DNA from: an uncultured Candidatus Saccharibacteria bacterium
GTDB lineage: Bacteria > Patescibacteriota > Minisyncoccia > Phycocordibacterales > PALSA-1337
DNA length: 64,000 bases
Assembly: GCA_964459225.1 (NCBI GenBank)
Contig: CAYWKB010000001.1
Span: 354,777-418,776, forward strand
Direction: 5' to 3'
Shown here piece after piece: positions 560 through 17,252 of this stretch. The stretch's first letter is position 1; each line of letters opens with the position of its first letter. The notes under the pieces are model-generated. The model was given only the letters and a program-made list of their open reading frames with translations, did no database searches and was not told the DNA's origin. The position numbers and the translations under genes are program-made.

Positions 560-787
560 ATGGTTAATCGAATGAGAGCAAATAGGTCACATCGTGACAA
601 TCGCAGATCACATCATGCGCTTGACGATATTCGCCTATCAAAATGCGCAAATTGTGGCGCAATGCACAAGAGACACACAATGTGCGAAAAGTGCGGAAAT
701 TACAGGGGAAGAAAGGTGATAGACATGACAGCAATAGTAGCAAAGGAAACAGCAAAAAATAAGAAAAAGACAGCGGTAGCAAAATAA
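560..787 (+). CDS. rpmF: 50S ribosomal protein L32
   Basis: 75-aa basic protein. N-terminal RANRSHRDNRRSHHAL and a CxxC...CxxC zinc ribbon (CANCG...CEKCG) are typical of bL32. Confidence 0.8.
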   Translation: MVNRMRANRSHRDNRRSHHALDDIRLSKCANCGAMHKRHTMCEKCGNYRGRKVIDMTAIVAKETAKNKKKTAVAK

Positions 788-2443: not shown

Positions 2444-4657
2444 ATGTATCTCAAATCATTAGAGATTTCTGGTTTTAAATCTTTTGCAAAAAAGGCAGTT
2501 TTGAATTTTACTTCTCCCATTTCAGCAATAGTCGGTCCAAATGGATCAGGTAAATCAAATACAGCTGAAGCATTTCGCTTTGTGCTTGGTGAACAATCTA
2601 TAAAAAGTATGAGAGGTAAGCGAGGTGAAGATTTGATATTTAATGGTGGAGGTGAAGGAGCAAGAACAAATAGAGCATCAGTTAAGGTTGTGTTTGATAA
2701 TTCAAAGAGAATGCTCAATATTGATTTTGATGAAGTCACTTTGGAAAGAGTTGTGCATCGTGATAATTCAAATGAGTATTTTATAAATGGTTCTCCTACA
2801 AGATTAAAGGATATTGTAGAGCTACTTGTCGGTGCTCATATCGGAGCTTCAGGACATCATATAATCTCACAAGGTGAGGCAGATAGAATTTTGAATGCAA
2901 ATATTCGTGAAAGAAGGGAAATGATAGAGGATGCGCTTGGACTTAAAATATATCAATACAAAAAGATTGAAAGTGAAAGAAAATTAGAAAAGACAGAGGA
3001 AAATATGAAATCCGTTGAATCATTGCGTAGGGAAATCGCTCCTCATTTAAAATTCTTAAAAAAGCAGGTAGAAAAAGTAGAAAAAGTACAGGAAATGCGA
3101 GAAGAGCTACGCAAATTATATAAGGAATATTTTAAGCGTGAAGAAGCATATTTAAAAAATGAAAAAGACAGAATACATGAAATCAAAAATCCATTAATTA
3201 AAGAATTAGCAGTACTTGAAACTGAAATAAATGAAGCAAAAAGAATATTAGAAAGTTCAAAAAATCGCGATGCAAAAAGTGATGAATTAATCGCTATTGA
3301 AAGTGCATTACATAATATACGTATAGAAAAGGATAAGGTAATGCGTGAACTCGGAAATATAGAAGGTGAAATACGTGTGGGTGAAAGAAGTATTTCAAAA
3401 GAAAAAGAAAAATTGGCTAAAGATGAATTTAAAACAGTATATTTGCAAGACGTTGAAGAAGTTTTCAATAAAGTTAGCCTCCTGCAAACAATTTCAGAAA
3501 TCAAAGAATTACTTTTTGGCTTTATTTCATCACATAAAAATAAAGTAGATTCAAGTTTAATAGCAGAAACAGAAAAAGATATAAAAATCCTTTTAGATAA
3601 AAAAGGTAAATTTGAATTATCTCTTAAGGATTTTGATAATCAAGAAAAAGTTAAAACACTTGAATACAATACATTAAGACAAAAAATAGAAATAGAAAAA
3701 GACTCAAATAGAGATGCAGAAAAAAATGTTTTTAGAATAATAGCTAGACAAAATGAAGTAAGAGGAATATTAAATGGTATTAAAACAAGTGAAGATAAAT
3801 TGAGATTAGAAGAGGAATCATTTAAAAGGGAATTAAATGAAGCATATGTACTCGTTGGTCGCGAAGCAGTGGACTATAAAGATATAGTAATCACACAAGA
3901 AGAAAGAATAGCTCAAATTGATAGACAAAAAAATATTGAAAAAATAAAAATAAGAATTGAGGATTCAGGTGCGGGAAATAGTATAGATATAATGAAGGAA
4001 TATAAGGAGGTTGAAGAAAGAGATGCTTTCCTTGCAAAAGAAATAACAGATTTAGAAAATTCAAAAATAAGTCTCAAAAATCTAATAGCAGATTTGGATG
4101 CAAGAATAGATGTAGAATTCAAAGAAGGAATATTAAAAATAAATACACAATTTCAAAACTATTTTTCACTTATGTTTGGTGGAGGAAATGCAGGCCTTAC
4201 AGTAGTTAGAGAAAATAAAAGAAAAAAGAAAAGTGATACAGATCTATCATCACTACTTTCAAATGATGGAGGCGAGGCGATAGAGGAAAATGAAGAAGGG
4301 GAAGAGGGAATAGAAATAAATGTAAATTTACCAAGGAAAAAGGTAAAAGGGCTAATGATGCTATCAGGAGGTGAGAGAGCACTTACCTCAATTGCTCTAC
4401 TTTTTGCAATATCACAAGTAAATCCTCCACCATTTATAATTTTAGACGAAACAGATGCGGCACTAGATGAAGCAAATTCAAGAAAGTACGGGGATATGAT
4501 TTCAAATCTTTCAAAGTATTCACAGTTGATTTTGATTACACATAATAGAGAAACAATGTCACGAGCAGGAGTGCTTTATGGAGTTACTATGGGAAGTGAT
4601 GGGGCTTCAAAGTTATTATCAATACAATTTGAACAGGCAGTGCAGGTGGCGAAGTAG
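2444..4657 (+). CDS. smc: SMC-family chromosome segregation ATPase, unusually short (737 aa), no recognisable hinge
   Basis: N-terminal head MYLKSLEISGFKSF...GPNGSGKSN (Walker A). C-terminal head LSGGERALTSIALLFAI...IILDETDAALD (signature and Walker B). The middle is a long K/E-rich coiled coil. It sits directly downstream of rnc, as in the Firmicutes rnc-smc arrangement. Confidence 0.75.
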   Translation: MYLKSLEISGFKSFAKKAVLNFTSPISAIVGPNGSGKSNTAEAFRFVLGEQSIKSMRGKRGEDLIFNGGGEGARTNRASVKVVFDNSKRMLNIDFDEVTLERVVHRDNSNEYFINGSPTRLKDIVELLVGAHIGASGHHIISQGEADRILNANIRERREMIEDALGLKIYQYKKIESERKLEKTEENMKSVESLRREIAPHLKFLKKQVEKVEKVQEMREELRKLYKEYFKREEAYLKNEKDRIHEIKNPLIKELAVLETEINEAKRILESSKNRDAKSDELIAIESALHNIRIEKDKVMRELGNIEGEIRVGERSISKEKEKLAKDEFKTVYLQDVEEVFNKVSLLQTISEIKELLFGFISSHKNKVDSSLIAETEKDIKILLDKKGKFELSLKDFDNQEKVKTLEYNTLRQKIEIEKDSNRDAEKNVFRIIARQNEVRGILNGIKTSEDKLRLEEESFKRELNEAYVLVGREAVDYKDIVITQEERIAQIDRQKNIEKIKIRIEDSGAGNSIDIMKEYKEVEERDAFLAKEITDLENSKISLKNLIADLDARIDVEFKEGILKINTQFQNYFSLMFGGGNAGLTVVRENKRKKKSDTDLSSLLSNDGGEAIEENEEGEEGIEINVNLPRKKVKGLMMLSGGERALTSIALLFAISQVNPPPFIILDETDAALDEANSRKYGDMISNLSKYSQLILITHNRETMSRAGVLYGVTMGSDGASKLLSIQFEQAVQVAK

Positions 4658-4668
4658 GGGGTAATAAA

Positions 4669-4703
4669 TATTGACTATATTGTAATTGTGTTATATATTT
4701 TCT
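4669..4703 (+). promoter_or_regulatory. Sigma70-like promoter (TTGACT - 17 nt - TATATT) in front of the orphan ORF at 4724
   Basis: TTGACT at 4670-4675 and TATATT about 17 nt downstream. A GGAAGGA RBS lies ~10 nt before the ATG at 4724. Confidence 0.35.
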
Positions 4704-4723
4704 GATGGAAGGAAATTTAAAAC

Positions 4724-4993
4724 ATGCAAAATATTGATATTCTATGGCAAAAAATGAATAAATATGAACGATTCGTTGCGTACTATATTGCAACAATTGT
4801 GGCAAGTAAACTTGGTCTCATCAGTCATGAGGATGGTAATCATGATATTGGTCCTACAATGCTCGGGATTGATTTTGAAAAGATGAATCCTGCCAATTTT
4901 CGTCCCGAGGTATCTAGATTAATCAACGAACGGATCACGAATGCGAATGACGACTTTACAACCGTTTATCAAAGACTTTTAGAATCACTCTAA
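4724..4993 (+). CDS. Hypothetical small acidic protein (89 aa), no recognisable domain
   Basis: ORF with its own promoter-like sequence and RBS. Codon usage (CGT/CGG/ACG/CCC) and GC are atypical for this AT-rich genome. Confidence 0.4.
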   Translation: MQNIDILWQKMNKYERFVAYYIATIVASKLGLISHEDGNHDIGPTMLGIDFEKMNPANFRPEVSRLINERITNANDDFTTVYQRLLESL

Positions 4994-5057
4994 TTCAACT
5001 CTAAAAAGAGAGCATTGGCGCTAGGCTATGTCAGGTAAGGAGGATCTCAAAATCACA

Positions 5058-5117
5058 CCCGCAATCTGAAATATGGTTGCGGGACTCAATTGAGCCCTCG
5101 ACTGAAGTCGAAGGTTC
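5058..5117 (+). ncRNA. Candidate structured RNA element: two adjacent stable hairpins in a locally GC-enriched intergenic spacer
   Basis: Hairpin 1 is CCCGCAA(5058-5064)/TTGCGGG(5077-5083). Hairpin 2 is GAGCCCTCGAC-TGAA-GTCGAAGGTTC (5092-5117), 10 bp with one mismatch. No U-tract follows either, so they are not intrinsic terminators. They lie 40-100 nt upstream of the ORF at 5157. Confidence 0.25.
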
Positions 5118-5156
5118 ATAGGGTAAGTTCTAAACAATTAAATAGAAAGGTTAGTT

Positions 5157-5606
5157 ATGTCAATTGGAAGTCCAGAAGAATTGCAAGGAGATCGAGATAA
5201 TTTCTTGTACTATACCTCCCAGTATTATGAATGGAGGAAGAAAAACAGAAGAGCTGAAATCATTTGTTTTAAAAATAATGGACGCCATCTTTTTCTTAGA
5301 CGCGAGAAATGGCTTCTCCAAAGCGAAAAATGGTTTCTCGTTCGATACAATAAATTCCGTCGTACACAAATATTACTACTGGAAAATGAAGAGATCGTCT
5401 TTAAACATGGTGCACATCTTGATAGCTCTAGAGGTGTTAAGAGTCCTGTTCGCATATTTCTCTTCAGGAGATATGCAAATAAAAAACATGGAGTGTTTAG
5501 TTCTGTTAACTGTAAAGAAATCACGATTCCAGTAAGACATCATTGCTACATCGCAGTGTATAGAGGGCGAGTGATCAGTAGTTTATTACTACATTTTGTC
5601 GGTTAA
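5157..5606 (+). CDS. Hypothetical very basic, aromatic-rich protein (149 aa); coding status uncertain
   Basis: GAAAGG RBS 8 nt upstream. Internal peptide repeat EKWLLQS/EKWFLVR. Three frames and both strands are open here, so it could also be non-coding. Composition is atypical. Confidence 0.3.
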   Translation: MSIGSPEELQGDRDNFLYYTSQYYEWRKKNRRAEIICFKNNGRHLFLRREKWLLQSEKWFLVRYNKFRRTQILLLENEEIVFKHGAHLDSSRGVKSPVRIFLFRRYANKKHGVFSSVNCKEITIPVRHHCYIAVYRGRVISSLLLHFVG

Positions 5607-5692
5607 GTTTATTCAGTGCAGTAAGTTTTCAACAATTAGATTTTAGATATTATTATATACATACCTATACCATAATATCTGAAATCTCGATA

Positions 5693-5727
5693 AAAGCAGC
5701 TCGTATTATTTATGACTGCTTTTTTTA
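5693..5727 (+). terminator. Rho-independent terminator candidate
   Basis: AAAGCAG (5693-5699) pairs with CTGCTTT (5716-5722), followed by a T7 run. The loop is large, so confidence is moderate. Confidence 0.4.
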
Positions 5728-5817
5728 TTGACCAAATATTTAAATTATGTAATTATAAAAAACGATTAGCTTTTTAAATCGTATAGTCAAAAAACCAACC
5801 AAAGAAATGGAGGAAAT

Positions 5818-6171
5818 ATGCGTGGTTTTGTACATAAGGAGCCAGAAGAAGTTTCGGTTATGATCAAGAAGGGTCATGGAACAGAACATGATTTAGAAGG
5901 TAGACTGATAACGGATGGTATTGATATTGTTGGTGGGGAATATAGAGGAGAACTCAGTATATTCTCCTATGCTCGTATTAAGACCGGCAGTATTGAATTT
6001 AGGGGATGCCACATAAGAGGTAAACTTGATCTCGAAGGATTAGAAATTGATAATGGTCAATTGATTATTTCTGATGTAACAGTAGATGGTCACCTGTTAC
6101 TTCCAAGGCTCTTGATCGGTGTAACTAAACTAAGTAACTTTAGAGTTCGTGGACAGTTAGTGTGGGTTTAA
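5818..6171 (+). CDS. Hypothetical beta-solenoid protein (bactofilin-like repeat pattern?), 117 aa
   Basis: Strong RBS GGAGGA 7 nt upstream. Repetitive G-x-hydrophobic pattern (IDIVGGEYRGELSIF...IEFRGCHIRGKLDLEGLEIDNGQLIISDVTVDG). Atypical GC and codon usage. A TTGACC promoter-like hexamer lies near 5737. Confidence 0.45.
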   Translation: MRGFVHKEPEEVSVMIKKGHGTEHDLEGRLITDGIDIVGGEYRGELSIFSYARIKTGSIEFRGCHIRGKLDLEGLEIDNGQLIISDVTVDGHLLLPRLLIGVTKLSNFRVRGQLVWV

Positions 6172-6196
6172 CCAAAAAGACAAACCCACTCACAAA

Positions 6197-6226
6197 AGCC
6201 GGAATCAACCCCGGCTTTTCTTTTTA
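6197..6226. terminator. Bidirectional rho-independent terminator between convergent genes
   Basis: AGCCGG (6197-6202), 8-nt loop, CCGGCT (6211-6216), then TTTTCTTTTT on the + strand and an A/T-rich tract on the - strand. Confidence 0.6.
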
Positions 6227-8185
6227 TTGAACCAAAGCAAAATCCAAAGTCTTTTTATCCAAATCCGCCCCTATGACCTTAAATCTTATTTCATCACCAA
6301 GTGTAAACTTCTGACCCGATTTCTGTGCCTTTATTGAATATGTTTTTTTATCAAATTCATAATAGTCATTTCCGATATTTCTGATATTTATCATACCTTC
6401 TGATTTTGTTTCTTTTTCTTCTACATAGATTCCGTATTCTGAAACACCTGATATTGTACCAGCGAATTCTTGTCCAACTTTATCTGACATATATTCTACT
6501 TGTTTTAGTTTTTTTGATTCTCTTTCTGCGCCTGATGCATCTATTTCTCTTGCTGTAGATTTTTCGGCTATGTCTTGGAATTGTATTATTTCTCTGTCTC
6601 CAAATGGTTCATGTTTTAAATGTCTCTGCAATATTCTTTGTATTAATAGATCTGGATAGCGTCTAATTGGGGAAGTGAAATGAGTATAGTATTCGAATGC
6701 AAGACCAAAATGTCCAATGTTTTTGGTTGAATACACTGCCTTTTGCATTGAACGTATTACTGCTGTGCTTATAAGGGTCTCGTGTGGAGTGCCCTCAATC
6801 TGTTTTAAAAGGCTTTTTATGGCTTTTGCTGTCACTTTATTGTCTTTTATAGGCAAATCATAGCCAAGTGCATGTACAAATACAGATAATTCCTGCATTC
6901 TTTCTTGATCTGGCAAATCATGTATTCGATATATTGATCCTGTATCCTTTTTTCCTTTATGTTTTATTGAATCAAAAATGTATTTTGCAACTTCGCGATT
7001 TGCAAGCAACATGTATTCTTCTACGAGTTTATGTGTATCCAATCTTTCTTTTTTGTATACTCCTATTGGCTTACCATTTTCATCCAATTTAAATTTGATT
7101 TCTTCTTGTTCAAATTCTATTGCACCTTTATCAAACTTTTCTTTTTGTAGGATTTTTGCGATTGTATTTAATGTATTTAATTCTTTAAAATATTTTCCTT
7201 CTTTTTTATTTAAGACTTCTTGTGCATCCTCGTATGTAAATCTATGATCAGAATTGATTATTGTTTTTCCAAACTTTCTGTCTATTACTTCGCCTTTTTT
7301 ATTTAAAATAAACCAAGCAGAAAATGTAAGTTTTTCCTCATGTGGATTAAGACTACATACATCATCTGAAAGTACTTCAGGAAGCATGGGTATTGTCCTG
7401 TCGACTAGGTAAATAGAGCAACCACGTTTCAAGGCTTCTTTATCGAGCTCTGAGCCTTCTTTTACATAATGACTTACATCTGCAATATGTACTCCTATTT
7501 CGTATTTTTCTTCGCCATCTGTGTTTTCGAGTTCTTTAAAAGAGATAGCATCATCAAAGTCTTTTGCGTCAAATGGGTCGATTGTAAATGTAAGTGTATT
7601 TCTGAAATCAGTTCTCTTTGGTATCTCTGATTTTATGTCTGCTATTTTATTTTTTTCTATTTCATCTGCCTCAGCTTCAACCTGTTTTGGAAATCCTATT
7701 TCAAATCCGCGTTCAAGAACTATTGATTCCATTTCTACATTATTGTCTCCTTTTTTTCCTAAGATTTTAATTATTTTTCCTATTGGATTTACTTTTGGAT
7801 CTGTCCATTCATCCATTTTTACATAGACTTTGTCGCCAATATTTACCTTTTTCTTATCTTCCTCATTTAAACGAATAGAAGCATATGCCTTTTTATCATC
7901 TGGATATGCTGTTAAAACTCCTTCTTTGCTATCTATTACACAAACAAAATTATATCTAGCTCTCTCAACTATTTTTACAACTTTTCCTGTTAATCCTTTT
8001 GGACTTTTTTTATTATCTATTTCAACTTCAACTATATCTCCGTTTAATGCTGTGTTTAGGTATTCTCCTTCTATAAAAATATCATTATCAACATTATCTG
8101 AATTTTTAACAAAACCCATATACTTTCGATTAGTTGTGATAGTACCGGTTATCGTTTTGCCTGGCTCGAACTTTGTATCTTTCAT
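6224..8185 (-). CDS. rnr: Ribonuclease R (RNB family 3'-5' exoribonuclease)
   Basis: RNB catalytic motifs DFDDAIS, GVHIADVSHYV, GCSIYLVDRTIPMLPE and SPIRRYPDLL. N-terminal OB/cold-shock region and a C-terminal S1 domain. Confidence 0.9.
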   Translation of the reverse strand: MKDTKFEPGKTITGTITTNRKYMGFVKNSDNVDNDIFIEGEYLNTALNGDIVEVEIDNKKSPKGLTGKVVKIVERARYNFVCVIDSKEGVLTAYPDDKKAYASIRLNEEDKKKVNIGDKVYVKMDEWTDPKVNPIGKIIKILGKKGDNNVEMESIVLERGFEIGFPKQVEAEADEIEKNKIADIKSEIPKRTDFRNTLTFTIDPFDAKDFDDAISFKELENTDGEEKYEIGVHIADVSHYVKEGSELDKEALKRGCSIYLVDRTIPMLPEVLSDDVCSLNPHEEKLTFSAWFILNKKGEVIDRKFGKTIINSDHRFTYEDAQEVLNKKEGKYFKELNTLNTIAKILQKEKFDKGAIEFEQEEIKFKLDENGKPIGVYKKERLDTHKLVEEYMLLANREVAKYIFDSIKHKGKKDTGSIYRIHDLPDQERMQELSVFVHALGYDLPIKDNKVTAKAIKSLLKQIEGTPHETLISTAVIRSMQKAVYSTKNIGHFGLAFEYYTHFTSPIRRYPDLLIQRILQRHLKHEPFGDREIIQFQDIAEKSTAREIDASGAERESKKLKQVEYMSDKVGQEFAGTISGVSEYGIYVEEKETKSEGMINIRNIGNDYYEFDKKTYSIKAQKSGQKFTLGDEIRFKVIGADLDKKTLDFALVQ

Positions 8186-9132: not shown

Positions 9133-9789
9133 ATGACATTTCACATAATTTCACTATTCCCACAATCCCTAGACTCATATCTAAATGAGTCTATTTTAAA
9201 GCGTGCAATAGATGATAAAAAGATTAGTATTAAATTTTATAATCCTCGTGATTTTACTAATGGAAATAGTTATGCAGATAGAAGAGTTGATGATAAGCCT
9301 TATGGTGGTGGTCCTGGCATGGTTATAGAAGCATTGCCAATAATAAAAGCAATTGAAAAGGCAATTGGAAAAAAGAATTCAAAGAAGAGATTTAAAATAG
9401 TATGGTTTACACCTTCTGGAAAACAATTTGATACAACAATAGCAAAAGAATATGCCAAAAAATATACTGACATTGTATTTATCTGCGGTCGCTATGAAGG
9501 AATAGACGCAAGAGTTAAAAAAGTATTTAAAGTGGAAGAAATTTCAGTTGGGCCATTTGTACTCACTGGTGGTGAATTGCCAGCTATGCTTTTAATTGAC
9601 TCAATTGGCAGACAAATAAAGGGTGTTTTGGGTGATATTAATTCATTAGAAGAAAATAGAATATCATCACCAGATGTTTATACTCGTCCAGAAGTAGTAC
9701 AATATAAGAATAAAAAATATAAAGTGCCAAAAGTACTTTTATCAGGTAATCATAAATTAATCGATGAATGGAGAAATAAAAATAAATAA
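9133..9789 (+). CDS. trmD: tRNA (guanine37-N1)-methyltransferase
   Basis: HIISLFPQ start, PYGGGPGMV and the SPOUT knot region. 218 aa. Confidence 0.9.
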   Translation: MTFHIISLFPQSLDSYLNESILKRAIDDKKISIKFYNPRDFTNGNSYADRRVDDKPYGGGPGMVIEALPIIKAIEKAIGKKNSKKRFKIVWFTPSGKQFDTTIAKEYAKKYTDIVFICGRYEGIDARVKKVFKVEEISVGPFVLTGGELPAMLLIDSIGRQIKGVLGDINSLEENRISSPDVYTRPEVVQYKNKKYKVPKVLLSGNHKLIDEWRNKNK

Positions 9790-10708
9790 TCTTTTTTATC
9801 TTTCAATTATCTTAATTTTGATTGGTGTATTTTTTAATTTCTATAAACCAAATCAAGATTATAACTATGTAAGGCCAGATAGTAATATAGTTGATGAAGT
9901 AAATGTGCTTATATTTGGTGATATGATGCTTGATAGGAATGTAAGAAATATCATTAATAAAAAAGGTTTTGATAGATTTTTTGCTGGTGTATCTGAGATA
10001 GTAAAAGGAGCAGATATTGCAGTTGCAAATCTTGAAGGTCCCTTTACTGATTATCCATCTATTACTGCAAGTCTTACAAATAAAGCATTGCAATTTACCT
10101 TTGATCCAAAACTAGCATATAAATTATCTGAATTCGGTTTTGATATTTTAGGTTTAGCAAATAATCATACATTAAACTTTGGTAGTGATGGTCTAGGGCA
10201 AACAAAAAAGTATATAGGTAATGCTGGGATGATATATTATGGTGATCCTTTAAATAAAGATGAAATAAGTACAATTGTAAATAAAAATGGCATTAAAATT
10301 GCTTTTATTGGTTTTCATGAATTTAACTATATAAATTACAATAATGTATTTAATGAAATTGAGCGTTTGAAAAATGATGTAGATATAATTATTGTCACAC
10401 CACATTGGGGAATAGAATACGAAAAAGTTCCAACAGATAAAATGAGAGAATGGGCACGTTTATTTATTGATTCCGGTGCAAATATTGTTGTGGGAGCGCA
10501 TCCACATGTGATTGGAATATCAGAAAAATATAATAATGGAACTATATATTATTCTCTTGGAAACTTTGTATTCGATCAATATTTTAGTGAAGACACTATG
10601 AATGGATTGGCTTTAAAAATAAAAATACTTAAAAATAATAAAAAAATTAACTATTCAATAATTGAAATTCCGATACGTATAGATCGAGATGGGGTTAGGG
10701 TTAAATAA
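9764..10708 (+). CDS. CapA/PgsA-family metallophosphoesterase (poly-gamma-glutamate capsule synthesis-like), N-terminal membrane anchor
   Basis: LANNHTLNFG, GAHPHVIG and SLGNFVFDQ motifs of the CapA (PGA_cap) family. The start overlaps the trmD end. Confidence 0.75.
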   Translation: MNGEIKINNLFYLSIILILIGVFFNFYKPNQDYNYVRPDSNIVDEVNVLIFGDMMLDRNVRNIINKKGFDRFFAGVSEIVKGADIAVANLEGPFTDYPSITASLTNKALQFTFDPKLAYKLSEFGFDILGLANNHTLNFGSDGLGQTKKYIGNAGMIYYGDPLNKDEISTIVNKNGIKIAFIGFHEFNYINYNNVFNEIERLKNDVDIIIVTPHWGIEYEKVPTDKMREWARLFIDSGANIVVGAHPHVIGISEKYNNGTIYYSLGNFVFDQYFSEDTMNGLALKIKILKNNKKINYSIIEIPIRIDRDGVRVK

Positions 10709-14341: not shown

Positions 14342-16102
14342 ATGAATGAAGAAAGGATTACATATTTTGGTCAAACCGATTCAAGAAATAAAAGGGTGAG
14401 TTTTGGTATTAAGGCCAAGGATCGTACTAAACATGTTTATGTAATCGGAAAGACAGGAATGGGAAAGTCTACCTTGCTTGAAAACATGGCTGTTCAGGAT
14501 ATTAAAAATGGTGAAGGTCTCGCTTTTATTGATCCCCACGGCAAGACTGCAGAGTTGCTACTTGAATACGTTCCTGAACATAGAATGAAGGATGTTGTTT
14601 ACTTTGCTCCATTCGATGTTGATTATCCTATTTCATTTAATGTTTTAGAAAGTGTTGATCCAGACAAAAGACATCTAGTTGTTTCTGGTCTAATGAGTAC
14701 TTTCAAAAAGATTTGGCAAGATGCATGGTCTGCACGTATGGAATATATTCTAACAAATACCTTGCTTGCTTTGCTTGAATATCCTGATGCAACACTTCTT
14801 GGAGTAAATCGTATGTTGTCTGATAAGGAATTTAGAAATAAGGTTGTTGCATGTGTTACAGACTCTGCTGTAAAGGCATTTTGGACACAAGAATTTGCAA
14901 ATTATACCGAAAGAATGGCGGCTGAAGCAGTTCCCGCAATTCAAAACAAAATCGGTCAATTTACCGCTAATGCACTTATTCGAAATATGATAGGTCAGCC
15001 AAAATCATCATTTGATATTAGAAAAATGATGGATGAGGGTAAGATTTTCATAATTAACCTTTCAAAAGGAAGAATAGGCGAGTCAAATGCAAATCTTTTG
15101 GGTGGAATGCTTATTACAAAAATATATTTGGCTGCACTTTCACGCGCAGATATTCCTGATAGGGTTTTAAAGAAATTACCGAATTTTTATCTCTTTGTGG
15201 ACGAGTTCCAGTCTTTTGCAAATGAAAGTTTTGCGGATATTTTGTCTGAGGCTAGAAAATACAAATTAAATCTAACAATTGCACATCAATATATTGAGCA
15301 AATGGAAGATGAGGTTAGAGCAGCTGTTTTTGGTAACGTTGGTACCATGATTGTCTTTCGCGTTGGTGCATATGATGCAGAAATATTAGAAAAAGAATTC
15401 GCACCTCAATTTACCGCAGAGGACATTGTTAATCTTGGAATTTATCAAATATATTTAAAATTAATGATTGATGGTATTAGTTCTGCACCTTTTTCTGCTA
15501 CTACCTTGCCTCCAATAGATAAACCAGAAAGTTCAAGTATGGAAAAGGTTATACAGTCATCACGTGAACAATTTGCAAATAAACGTTCCGATGTTGAAAA
15601 AGCAATCGATGATTGGATGGTGCCTATTAAGCCGACTCCAAAAGCTATGGCCCCAAAATCAAATAATATAATTCAATCAAATCAGATACCTTCAAATCCA
15701 ATACCTAAACCTAATCCAATTTCACCCACACCTACACCTACACCCACTCCAGCTCCAACACCTGCGCCTGTATCTATACCTGTGCAAAAACCAGTTATCC
15801 CTACTCCAATGCCAATTCAAAAAGTTGAGCAACCTTTTAAAAAAGCTTTTTCAGAAATTAAAATTGAAGAGAAGAAGCCCGAAAGTGTAAAACCAATATC
15901 ATTAAATTCATTAGTCAAAAATAAAAAAGAAGCAGACCCTAGAAAGATAGATGATTTAAAGAGTGCATTAGCATCAGTTCTTGCAAATAAAAAAGTTGAA
16001 GAAAAACCAAAGACAAAGGAAGAAAAAAATAATACCGAAAAAAAGACAATTCCAAATGAAATTCCAGAGGATGTACTAAAAAACGTACTTAAGGTAGAGT
16101 AA
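14342..16102 (+). CDS. VirD4/TraD/TraG-like (type IV coupling protein / DUF87-type) P-loop ATPase with a low-complexity Pro/Thr/Lys-rich C-terminal tail
   Basis: Walker A VIGKTGMGKSTL, Walker B YLFVDEFQSF, and ARKYKLNLTIAHQY, typical of TrwB/TraD-type NTPases. Residues ~430-586 are PT- and K/E-rich. Confidence 0.55.
   Translation: MNEERITYFGQTDSRNKRVSFGIKAKDRTKHVYVIGKTGMGKSTLLENMAVQDIKNGEGLAFIDPHGKTAELLLEYVPEHRMKDVVYFAPFDVDYPISFNVLESVDPDKRHLVVSGLMSTFKKIWQDAWSARMEYILTNTLLALLEYPDATLLGVNRMLSDKEFRNKVVACVTDSAVKAFWTQEFANYTERMAAEAVPAIQNKIGQFTANALIRNMIGQPKSSFDIRKMMDEGKIFIINLSKGRIGESNANLLGGMLITKIYLAALSRADIPDRVLKKLPNFYLFVDEFQSFANESFADILSEARKYKLNLTIAHQYIEQMEDEVRAAVFGNVGTMIVFRVGAYDAEILEKEFAPQFTAEDIVNLGIYQIYLKLMIDGISSAPFSATTLPPIDKPESSSMEKVIQSSREQFANKRSDVEKAIDDWMVPIKPTPKAMAPKSNNIIQSNQIPSNPIPKPNPISPTPTPTPTPAPTPAPVSIPVQKPVIPTPMPIQKVEQPFKKAFSEIKIEEKKPESVKPISLNSLVKNKKEADPRKIDDLKSALASVLANKKVEEKPKTKEEKNNTEKKTIPNEIPEDVLKNVLKVE
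15724..15770 (+). repeat. Short CCnACn microsatellite-like repeat encoding (PT)n/(PA)n
   Basis: CACACCTACACCTACACCCACTCCAGCTCCAACACCTGCGCCT, locally GC-rich. Confidence 0.5.
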
Positions 16103-16106
16103 ATAT

Positions 16107-17252
16107 ATGAATGAGACAGAAATGACTAAAAAACCCCTTAAAATAATGATTTTATCATTAGCTTATTATCCTAACTATATAGGTGGGGCAGAGGTAGCTA
16201 TAAAAGAAATAACAGATAGGGTATCTGATATTGAATTTCATATGATTACTTTAGGTGAATCGAGACAAATTGGAAATATAAAAATATTTGGTATTTTAGG
16301 GAAACTTAATTTCATTAACAAAATACTCTATCCTTTTATTTCATTTATTAAATTATCTTTATTAAATAAAAAAAATAATTATGATTTGATATGGCCAATG
16401 ATGGCAAGTTATGCAGGCTTTTCAGCTATGTTATTTAAAGCTTTTAATAAAAATAGTAAAGTACTATTAACAATACAAGAAGGTGAAAATTTTGAGAGAA
16501 GAAAAGGAATATTTTATCCATTTTTCAGGGAGATTTTTGAAAGTGCAGATTATATACAAGTTATTTCTAATTTCCTCAAAACTTGGTCAATTGAAATGGG
16601 CGCCTCATGTCCTATCGAGGTAATTCCAAATGGTGTTGATATTAAATATTTTTCAAATAAGATTTCTGATACAGAATTAAATGATTTAAAGTTTAAATTA
16701 AATAAAAGAGATGAAGATGTGTTTTTAATTACTACAAGTAGATTAGTAAATAAAAATGCTGTGGAAGATATTATTTCATCATTACAATTTTTACCATCAA
16801 ATATTAAATTATTAATATTGGGAGATGGAGAACTTAAAAACAAATTAATTGATCAGGTCAGTAAAATGAAATTAAATAATAGAGTTTCATTTTTGGGACA
16901 TATAGATAGAAAGGAATTACCAAAATACTTGCAGATTAGTGATATTTTTGTTCGTCCATCTATAAGTGAGGGTTTTGGTATTTCATATATTGAGGCAATG
17001 GCTTGTAATATTCCAGTAATAGCAACTCAAGTTGGTGGTATTGTTGATTTTATAAAAGATAGAGAAACAGGAATATTTTGTCAGGTTAATAATCCAAAAG
17101 ATATAAGTGATAAAGTAAAAGAGTTAGTTGAGAATACTCAATTAAAAAACACTATTATCGAGAACGCTTTTAATCTAGTAAAAAATAAATATGATTGGTC
17201 AAAAGTATCAAATGATATGAAAGATTTATTTATAAAGGTGTCAAGTAAATAG
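16107..17252 (+). CDS. Glycosyltransferase family 4 (GT-B, retaining)
   Basis: C-terminal E-x7-E motif region EGFGISYIEAMACNIPVIATQVGG. Confidence 0.8.
   Translation: MNETEMTKKPLKIMILSLAYYPNYIGGAEVAIKEITDRVSDIEFHMITLGESRQIGNIKIFGILGKLNFINKILYPFISFIKLSLLNKKNNYDLIWPMMASYAGFSAMLFKAFNKNSKVLLTIQEGENFERRKGIFYPFFREIFESADYIQVISNFLKTWSIEMGASCPIEVIPNGVDIKYFSNKISDTELNDLKFKLNKRDEDVFLITTSRLVNKNAVEDIISSLQFLPSNIKLLILGDGELKNKLIDQVSKMKLNNRVSFLGHIDRKELPKYLQISDIFVRPSISEGFGISYIEAMACNIPVIATQVGGIVDFIKDRETGIFCQVNNPKDISDKVKELVENTQLKNTIIENAFNLVKNKYDWSKVSNDMKDLFIKVSSK

Follow-up and report, generated by a model that had tools for sequence, protein, structure and literature searches.

Introduction

Flexible genomic islands are segments of bacterial chromosomes that are replaced through recombination in their conserved flanks, a concept derived from comparative genomics of marine and other bacteria. 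Here we describe a locus that is likely a small island of this kind, located on contig CAYWKB010000001.1 in a stretch of 64 000 nt that we analyzed as a whole and refer to as the window. The locus, which we call the islet, consists of the 1566 bp (positions 4658–6223) that separate the stop codon of smc from that of rnr, two convergent genes, and contains three small open reading frames, ORF1, ORF2 and ORF3. In our preferred reading, accessory units at this place have been gained, lost and swapped between the two conserved genes. As in flexible islands, the position is fixed between conserved core genes, content and presence differ in close relatives, composition is atypical, the genes are mostly hypothetical and no integrase is needed; insertion-deletion polymorphism at the fixed site and atypical composition and codon usage were both found. 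The islet differs from described islands in being tiny (1.6 kb, three genes), in being built of single-gene promoter/terminator units, and in that unrelated genes stand behind copies of one conserved hairpin leader, which is no described island feature. The marks of classical mobile islands are absent: ARAGORN detected no tRNA or tmRNA genes in the 64-kb window or in eight related loci (137 kb), and no recombinase or integrase was found among the Pfam-annotated neighbors, ∼6–10 kb on either side of the islet.

Phage morons are single genes with their own promoter and terminator that are inserted between conserved genes. The ORF3 unit (5722–6235; promoter, gene, terminator and a short duplication) and the ORF2 unit (5084–5723) resemble them in this respect and in a composition that is off from their surroundings, but the flanking genes of the islet are cellular housekeeping genes and there is no similarity to phage or viral sequence. 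Integron arrays have in common with the islet unrelated small ORFs in one orientation behind a common promoter, with hairpin-forming junctions. Unlike these arrays, the islet lacks intI and an attI/attC organization, has some units with their own promoters or terminators and holds only two to three genes; its neighbors are smc and rnr, with no integron integrase on record within ∼6–10 kb.

The nearest relatives of the window genes are metagenome-assembled genomes labeled Candidatus Taylorbacteria, Paceibacteria or Patescibacteria, and the host is probably a Candidatus Taylorbacteria-like, ultra-small genome of the Candidate Phyla Radiation (CPR). CPR genomes of ∼0.5 Mb are usually called streamlined and static, and at this locus we observe, at base-pair resolution, a tiny slot with a quick turnover of accessory genes. 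Genomic islands and horizontal gene transfer, mostly between Patescibacteria, are reported to be common in the phylum (PMC12455944), and the account of a recombining islet fits these reports.

The smc-rnr junction in related genomes

Our comparison set comprises 83 related loci (L-numbers), 79 of which came from searching species-representative genomes for the SMC protein. The gene block nusB-rnc-smc|rnr-rpsP-KH-trmD is kept in the 79 related genomes, with smc and rnr as convergent neighbors. In the 43 related loci with both genes, they are separated by anything from 0 to 4363 bp, and in ∼11 of these loci the gap is at most 30 bp, such that smc and rnr simply abut. The content of the inserts is nearly always unrelated from one species to another, including ORF6N-domain proteins (L010, L014), signal-peptide proteins (L012, L014), a 1294-aa secreted protein (L018) and many orphans. 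The gap of L009 (10268–10974) encodes a HEPN-type (NTase_sub_bind) protein together with a minimal nucleotidyltransferase (MNT), a recognized toxin-antitoxin architecture. Because the gap is empty in many relatives and differently filled in others, the junction is a gene-flux hotspot for accessory DNA and not a displaced ftsY site. An earlier reading of the window from its sequence alone had argued that this position would hold ftsY in Firmicutes-type synteny; the argument is irrelevant to this lineage, as smc directly abuts rnr in relatives, and no gene for a signal recognition particle (SRP)-type GTPase is present in the window.

ORF1, ORF2 and ORF3 themselves are encoded in none of the 79 genome loci, and only two of these, L080 and L010, have DNA in common with the islet. 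L080 is a sister genome with 94.7% SMC identity to the window, and its gap contains, in order, a promoter, a copy of the islet's hairpin leader (leader B′), a 343-aa gene (g343), a hairpin, a second copy (leader B), a 114-aa gene (g114), hairpin A, a promoter and a homolog of ORF3. A homolog of ORF2 was found on a 1359-bp metagenomic contig, L084, which reads from the end of smc through a promoter, leader B, the ORF2 homolog and an AT-rich hairpin with terminator to the end of rnr, with nothing else in between. Other contigs that bear the islet are 100% identical to it, without population variants. In the comparison with sister genomes proposed in the sequence-only reading, the site is variable and none of these genomes has the three genes together; ORF2 and ORF3 each have a homolog in one relative. 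The sizes of the three ORFs and their lack of any known family were as that reading had described, but ORF2 and ORF3 are not strictly orphans.

Modules of the islet

From these comparisons the islet consists of three separable modules: promoter, ORF1 and hairpin A; leader B, ORF2 and a double terminator; and ORF3 with its own promoter and terminator between two direct repeats. The modules occur independently in sister genomes, which suggests that the three genes are not parts of one system. Apart from the two direct repeats of the ORF3 unit, the islet features described below are on the plus strand. The sequence-only reading had noted a ribosome-binding site (RBS) for each gene, promoter-like hexamers and a structured RNA between ORF1 and ORF2, and all of these were found, with both promoter sites being kept in relatives.

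The first promoter (TTGACT-17-TATATT, 4671–4699) matches the consensus at 10 of 12 positions. Its core, from ATATTGACT to the −10 element, can be aligned to the promoter that comes first behind smc in L084 and in L080; the first gene that it drives there is a different one. ORF1 (4724–4993; 89 aa, isoelectric point (pI) 5.2) is a weakly supported gene for which we have an upstream RBS, GGAAGGAAA, and GC contents of.47,.30 and.31 at the three codon positions (GC1, GC2, GC3); one public source starts it at the ATG at 4754, giving 79 aa. A search of 5.8 billion proteins gave no homolog. In the hotspot of L049, a 92-aa ORF aligns with ORF1 at a Smith-Waterman score of 48 (z 6.1; 1 of 2000 shuffles scored as high), with an N-terminal LWQ...ER and a C-terminal F...YQ(K/R)L motif in common; since BLASTP reports no match between the two, we consider this possible relative only a lead. 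With L084 as reference, ORF1 and hairpin A together are an insertion that separates the conserved promoter from leader B.

The 163-nt spacer between ORF1 and ORF2 is predicted to fold into two hairpins (z −2.9). Hairpin A (5058–5083; CCCGCAAUC / GGUUGCGGG) is of the 3′ end type without a U-run. It shares 90% identity with the hairpin that terminates the unrelated g114 in L080, and in L010 its junction with hairpin B is precisely that of the window. Leader B (5084–5156) consists of a 12-bp hairpin (5091–5118) with a 4-nt loop, followed by GGTTCATAGGGTAAGTTCTAAAC and the RBS. Five copies occur in four genomes, scoring 55–76 bits with a covariance model: before ORF2, before its homolog in L084, before g343 and g114 in L080, and before a 172-aa ORF in L010. 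The model detected no further copies in 1.07 Mb of related DNA beyond these five training copies, and the motif was not found elsewhere in the window, in viral contigs or in metagenomes, save in L083, which is the same organism as L010. The four gene families behind the leader are unrelated (hhalign probability below 1%), and those of L080 and L010 have a GC3 of ∼0.5 in comparison with ∼0.2–0.3 in native genes. A conserved hairpin leader before four unrelated coding sequences in four genomes is a mildly unusual feature. Its conservation is not: between the window and L080, leader B is conserved no better than short intergenic regions (82–93%), as would be expected for regulatory DNA, and it is the turnover of the coding sequences that is unusual. 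The pairing of the helix is kept in 93% of cells across the copies versus 27–50% in slid controls, with one pair changed on both sides and several wobble changes. These changes were rejected as covariation proof of the hairpin, as they did not exceed shuffles with only five sequences available. We also rejected leader B as a sigma-70 promoter (its TTGAGC and TAGGGT are separated by a 23-nt spacer) and as a genome-wide repeat or miniature inverted-repeat transposable element, given that it is single-copy in the window and only five copies were found by the model.

At the equivalent place in L010 (10262–10925; identical in L083, 6088–6750), a GC-rich stretch of 664 nt without a long ORF lies between the islet promoter and the 172-aa orphan. 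Its folding is far stronger than that of shuffles (z −5.0), no Rfam family matches it, and hairpins A and B form its end. It may represent a structured RNA of unknown type or a gene that has decayed.

ORF2 (5157–5606) encodes a protein of 149 aa with a pI of 10.1 and 14% aromatic residues. A word-indexed search found no relatives, and a full HMMER scan of 1.84 billion representatives returned a single homolog, P0008 of L084 (137 aa, E 1.7e-10), with both reading frames intact. The two are 39% identical in amino acids and 52% in nucleotides, at a nonsynonymous divergence (dN) of 0.62 and a dN/dS ratio of ∼0.3 in which the synonymous divergence (dS) is saturated; the proportion of synonymous differences (pS) between the window and L084 is 0.70 for ORF2 versus 0.49 for rnr. 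The surrounding DNA is far more similar between the two, at 95% identity from position 5098 to the start codon (5098–5157), ∼90% in the 3′ hairpins and 87% in the rnr fragment (94% in amino acids). We conclude that ORF2 is a real, very fast-evolving gene. As both frames remain open, either the protein would be functional but very weakly constrained, or the two alleles would be older than the genomes that carry them. The internal repeat of the protein (EKWLLQS / EKWFLVR) is encoded by a 21-nt tandem duplication (5304–5345), and P0008 has a 6-residue gap exactly there; the duplication is specific to the window. An AlphaFold model from the single sequence had a mean predicted local distance difference test (pLDDT) of 36.6 and was unusable; the basic ORF2 may bind nucleic acids. 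Its coding sequence folds unremarkably as RNA (z −1.2) and is overlapped by long ORFs in two other frames. The 3′ untranslated region (5635–5723) contains a long AT-rich hairpin (5635–5691) and then a rho-independent terminator (5692–5723), with a minimum free energy z-score of −5.5 and none of 200 shuffles folding as well. A 21-nt direct repeat around ORF2 (5123–5143 and 5621–5641) was considered as a target duplication and rejected as a chance or old similarity, since the downstream copy aligns with the diverged 3′ untranslated region of L084.

The ORF3 unit is bounded by a 15-nt direct repeat, the only flanking repeat counted for the islet (family D4). The left copy (5722–5736; TTTTTATTGACCAAA) holds the −35 element of the ORF3 promoter (TTGACC-17-AATTAT with a TG, 5728–5756), which is kept upstream of the ORF3 homolog in L080; the right copy (6221–6235; TTTTTATTGAACCAA) overlaps the stop codon and last codons of rnr. 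In L084, where ORF3 is missing, only one copy is present, at the rnr stop codon, which makes this the empty site. ORF3 (5818–6171; 117 aa, pI 6.2) is followed by a terminator hairpin common to it and the convergent rnr (6194–6219), with a 9-bp stem that has five G-C pairs and is followed by a T-run. The A-run before this stem serves as a weaker T-run on the opposite strand. The two terminators proposed in the sequence-only reading are both present.

Among 5.8 billion clustered proteins, ORF3 has one homolog, P0007, with 65% amino acid identity, equal length and no indels. It is encoded in L080, adjoining rnr as in the window, behind the different 343-aa and 114-aa genes. Between the window and L080, the dS of ORF3 (0.93) falls within the range of eight flanking genes (0.59–0.96), while its dN is 0.26 in comparison with 0.02–0.06 and its dN/dS 0.28 in comparison with 0.03–0.06. 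ORF3 is thus a real, fast-evolving gene that has been inherited vertically since before the split from L080; with a dS like that of its neighbors, it is an old resident of the sub-clade and not a recent import. A model from the two-sequence alignment (pLDDT 72.8, predicted template modeling score 0.67) places nine strands in residues 30–116 and predicts a small right-handed beta-solenoid. Foldseek gave no match at E ≤ 0.001 to the PDB or to viral models (BFVD), so the beta-solenoid suggested in the sequence-only reading is supported at the level of fold class only. Unlike pentapeptide-repeat and other small right-handed beta-helix proteins (MfpA, Qnr, AlbG, the SV2 luminal domain), ORF3 has no pentapeptide motif (tandem A(D/N)LXX repeats) and no Pfam match at E<1 (PF00805), forms only about four turns and is not markedly acidic, with Foldseek E-values that are not significant.

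Composition and codon usage

The claim that this segment is richer in GC than its surroundings held up on quantitative analysis. Positions 4660–6180 have a GC content of 35.2% versus 29.6% for the window overall, which is the 98th percentile among 1.5-kb windows, and the top four 500-bp windows of the whole 64 kb (0.382–0.386) all lie within 4801–6300. In comparison with 47 long genes of the window, which have a codon adaptation index (CAI) of 0.70 ± 0.03 (minimum 0.617) and a GC3 of at most 0.266, the three ORFs have CAI values of 0.53, 0.52 and 0.58 and GC3 values of 0.31, 0.30 and 0.27, in order. When chunks of native genes of matching length serve as the null, none of 5000 samples has a CAI as low as that of ORF1 or ORF2, and ORF3 is at 0.4%. 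Arginine CGN codons are about six-fold more frequent than in the reference genes (14 of 355 islet codons, ∼39 per 1000, versus 6.1 per 1000), and ACG codons are enriched; of the rare codons listed in the sequence-only reading, only CCC was not convincing. All three ORFs show the coding-like pattern GC1 > GC2 ≥ GC3. In relatives, genes of the corresponding islands have a GC3 of ∼0.5 versus ∼0.2 for native genes. The native gene rpmF (L32; window 560–787), with a CAI of 0.545 and a GC3 of 0.37, is as atypical as the genes of the islet, and therefore composition alone is no proof of foreign origin.

Origin and maintenance of the islet

The promoter, leader B and terminator hairpins show much the same conservation as regulatory DNA in other intergenic regions, but the coding sequences that they enclose have been replaced or are hyperdivergent. 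ORF2 and ORF3 are genuine protein genes under relaxed purifying selection, with dN values 5–15 times those of their neighbors. The points of note are the reuse of leader B by unrelated genes and the presence of a hyperdivergent ORF2 inside conserved untranslated flanks. We propose that DNA is taken up, mostly from other, GC-richer Patescibacteria, and then exchanged by recombination in the conserved flanks, namely smc, rnr and the sequences of the promoter, leader and terminators. The ORF3 unit would have entered, or dropped out, at a 13–15-nt duplication of the rnr stop region. The idea of a horizontally acquired cassette therefore survives in part: the DNA is accessory and atypical, sits at a variable site and is organized in self-contained promoter/terminator units, but these are three modules with separate histories, and ORF3 is an old resident.

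Expression probably involves two transcripts. One would start at the 4671 promoter, cover ORF1, both hairpins (A and B) and ORF2, and stop at the terminator in 5692–5723; the other would carry ORF3 from its own promoter at 5728 to its terminator. By its position, hairpin A would probably form a 3′ end, and hairpin B would probably act as a 5′ stabilizer and translation-initiation platform for the gene behind it. The proteins themselves would be dispensable, lineage-specific factors, with ORF3 a small cytoplasmic beta-solenoid. Their fast change suggests interaction with hosts, phages or competitors, making them candidate strain-specific interaction factors. The islet thus adds two fast-evolving families (ORF2 and ORF3), a possible third (ORF1) and a hairpin leader reused by unrelated genes.

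Several points weigh against this account. ORF1 is without a confirmed homolog, and ORF3 has been inherited vertically since before the L080 split. The anomaly in GC and codon usage is modest (GC3 of 0.27–0.31) and equaled by rpmF, leaving the foreign origin of the three genes unproven. Leader B occurs in four genomes only, and L084 is a single metagenomic contig of 1.36 kb, so that the modular history is drawn from few comparisons. In addition, the roles of hairpins A and B are read from position only, and any assignment of functions to the three proteins appears conjectural.

Alternative explanations

The islet could instead be a cassette array with a dedicated, integron-like site-specific mechanism, in which the A and B junctions recombine and the conserved promoter captures foreign ORFs. 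In its favor, one leader stands before coding sequences of four unrelated families across four genomes, the window and L010 have the A-B junction in common, the captured genes of L080 and L010 have a foreign GC3 of ∼0.5, and ORF1 with hairpin A fills precisely the interval from the conserved promoter to leader B that is empty in L084. L049 offers an analog, with a different 20-nt repeat at each gene junction. Yet no recombinase is encoded within ∼6–10 kb on either side, and inspection by eye, without an attC model, revealed neither the attC-type R″/L″-L′/R′ order nor a GTTRRRY core. The level of conservation of leader B is that of ordinary intergenic regions (82–93%), its five copies show no significant covariation, and homologous recombination in conserved flanks explains the mosaics with no special enzyme. 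We therefore regard such an array as improbable. Equally speculative is the broader proposal that the conserved promoter and 12-bp leader are the dedicated expression slot of an undescribed cassette-capture system, integrase-independent or acting in trans, in ultra-small Patescibacteria genomes. If true, it would be a capture slot in which unrelated foreign ORFs are plugged precisely behind one leader and bounded by terminator hairpins, and in which resident alleles, ORF2 for instance, are pushed to extreme divergence within fixed untranslated flanks.

Even less probable is that ORF1 and ORF2 form a type II toxin-antitoxin or small defense module with the spacer as a regulatory RNA, as the sequence-only reading had hinted. 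A small acidic protein encoded upstream of a larger basic one on the same strand, probably from one promoter and in one transcript, is reminiscent of such modules; a bona fide MNT/HEPN pair occupies the same hotspot in L009, and this genome has a Zeta_toxin-domain gene a few kb upstream. The partners, however, do not occur together in relatives: the sole homolog of ORF2, in L084, stands alone without ORF1, and the possible ORF1 relative in L049 has no ORF2-like neighbor. Between the two genes there is no terminator U-run, but the long two-hairpin spacer is unlike the abutting or overlapping genes of type II systems. Moreover, ORF1, ORF2 and ORF3 had no hit in Pfam, NCBIfam, PHROGs or PADLOC-DB 2.0 at E<1, toxin-antitoxin domains included, no PDB sequence match below E = 1 in profile searches, and nothing in phage, plasmid or viral-contig searches. 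The tempting toxin-antitoxin or defense label is thus removed from the annotation as unsupported.

Least credible is that the ORFs are artefacts of gene calling and the GC-rich stretch encodes structured non-coding RNA. In favor of this reading, RNA genes often account for GC-rich segments in AT-rich genomes, the ORF1–ORF2 spacer and the ORF2 3′ region are significantly structured, ORF2 is overlapped by other long frames and L010 has its strongly folding, ORF-poor stretch at the equivalent place. Against it, no Rfam family matches at any threshold, ORF3 has a coding signature (dN/dS, identity and absence of indels), ORF2 combines an open frame and detectable protein similarity at 52% nucleotide identity with an ordinary RNA fold, and all three ORFs have an RBS and the GC1 > GC2 ≥ GC3 pattern. 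For ORF1 taken by itself this reading is considerably more plausible, while still the lesser chance. A known RNA gene hidden under the GC peak (SRP RNA, RNase P, tmRNA, 6S or a riboswitch) was rejected for lack of an Rfam or ARAGORN hit; Rfam returned only chance-level hits at E ≤ 10 in 4600–6300, and no family at gathering score in the window or in the eight related loci.

Neighboring genes and other variable junctions

The genes around the islet belong to ordinary Pfam families, mostly of housekeeping type: rpmF, a nusB-NUDIX fusion, rnc, a 737-aa SMC-family gene, rnr, rpsP, a KH-domain gene and trmD. The left flank is smc (2444–4657, plus strand), which encodes an SMC-family ATPase, and the right flank is rnr (6224–8185, minus strand), which encodes RNase R. 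The 737-aa smc product has a split SMC_N head and no SMC hinge domain in Pfam, and the short form is kept across relatives (737–780 aa). Because this length is shared by all relatives, the lineage appears to have a compact SMC-family protein and not the canonical SMC of ∼1200 aa. NusB (818–1720, 300 aa) carries a C-terminal NUDIX hydrolase domain, a fusion that is also kept in relatives.

The KH-trmD and rnr-rpsP gaps vary by 1–2.5 kb among relatives as well (L010, L012 and L016 between rnr and trmD), and therefore the smc-rnr junction is not the sole small hotspot. In L080, an extra 292-aa gene without a Pfam family (9317–10195) lies between the KH gene and trmD, and a TraG/TrwB-like gene (DUF87, type IV secretion system coupling protein; 15467–16386) is located ∼9 kb downstream. 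The Zeta_toxin-domain gene of this genome (L081, 1–444) is ∼5 kb upstream of the islet, before window position 1. The islet of L049 (10227–13225) contains five or six small orphan ORFs on both strands and has a ∼20-nt repeat in the same orientation, (A/G)TGGTGGTG(AG/TT)ATAGAGTTT, at four gene junctions (11251, 11676, 12066 and 12736), which was found in no other fetched locus.

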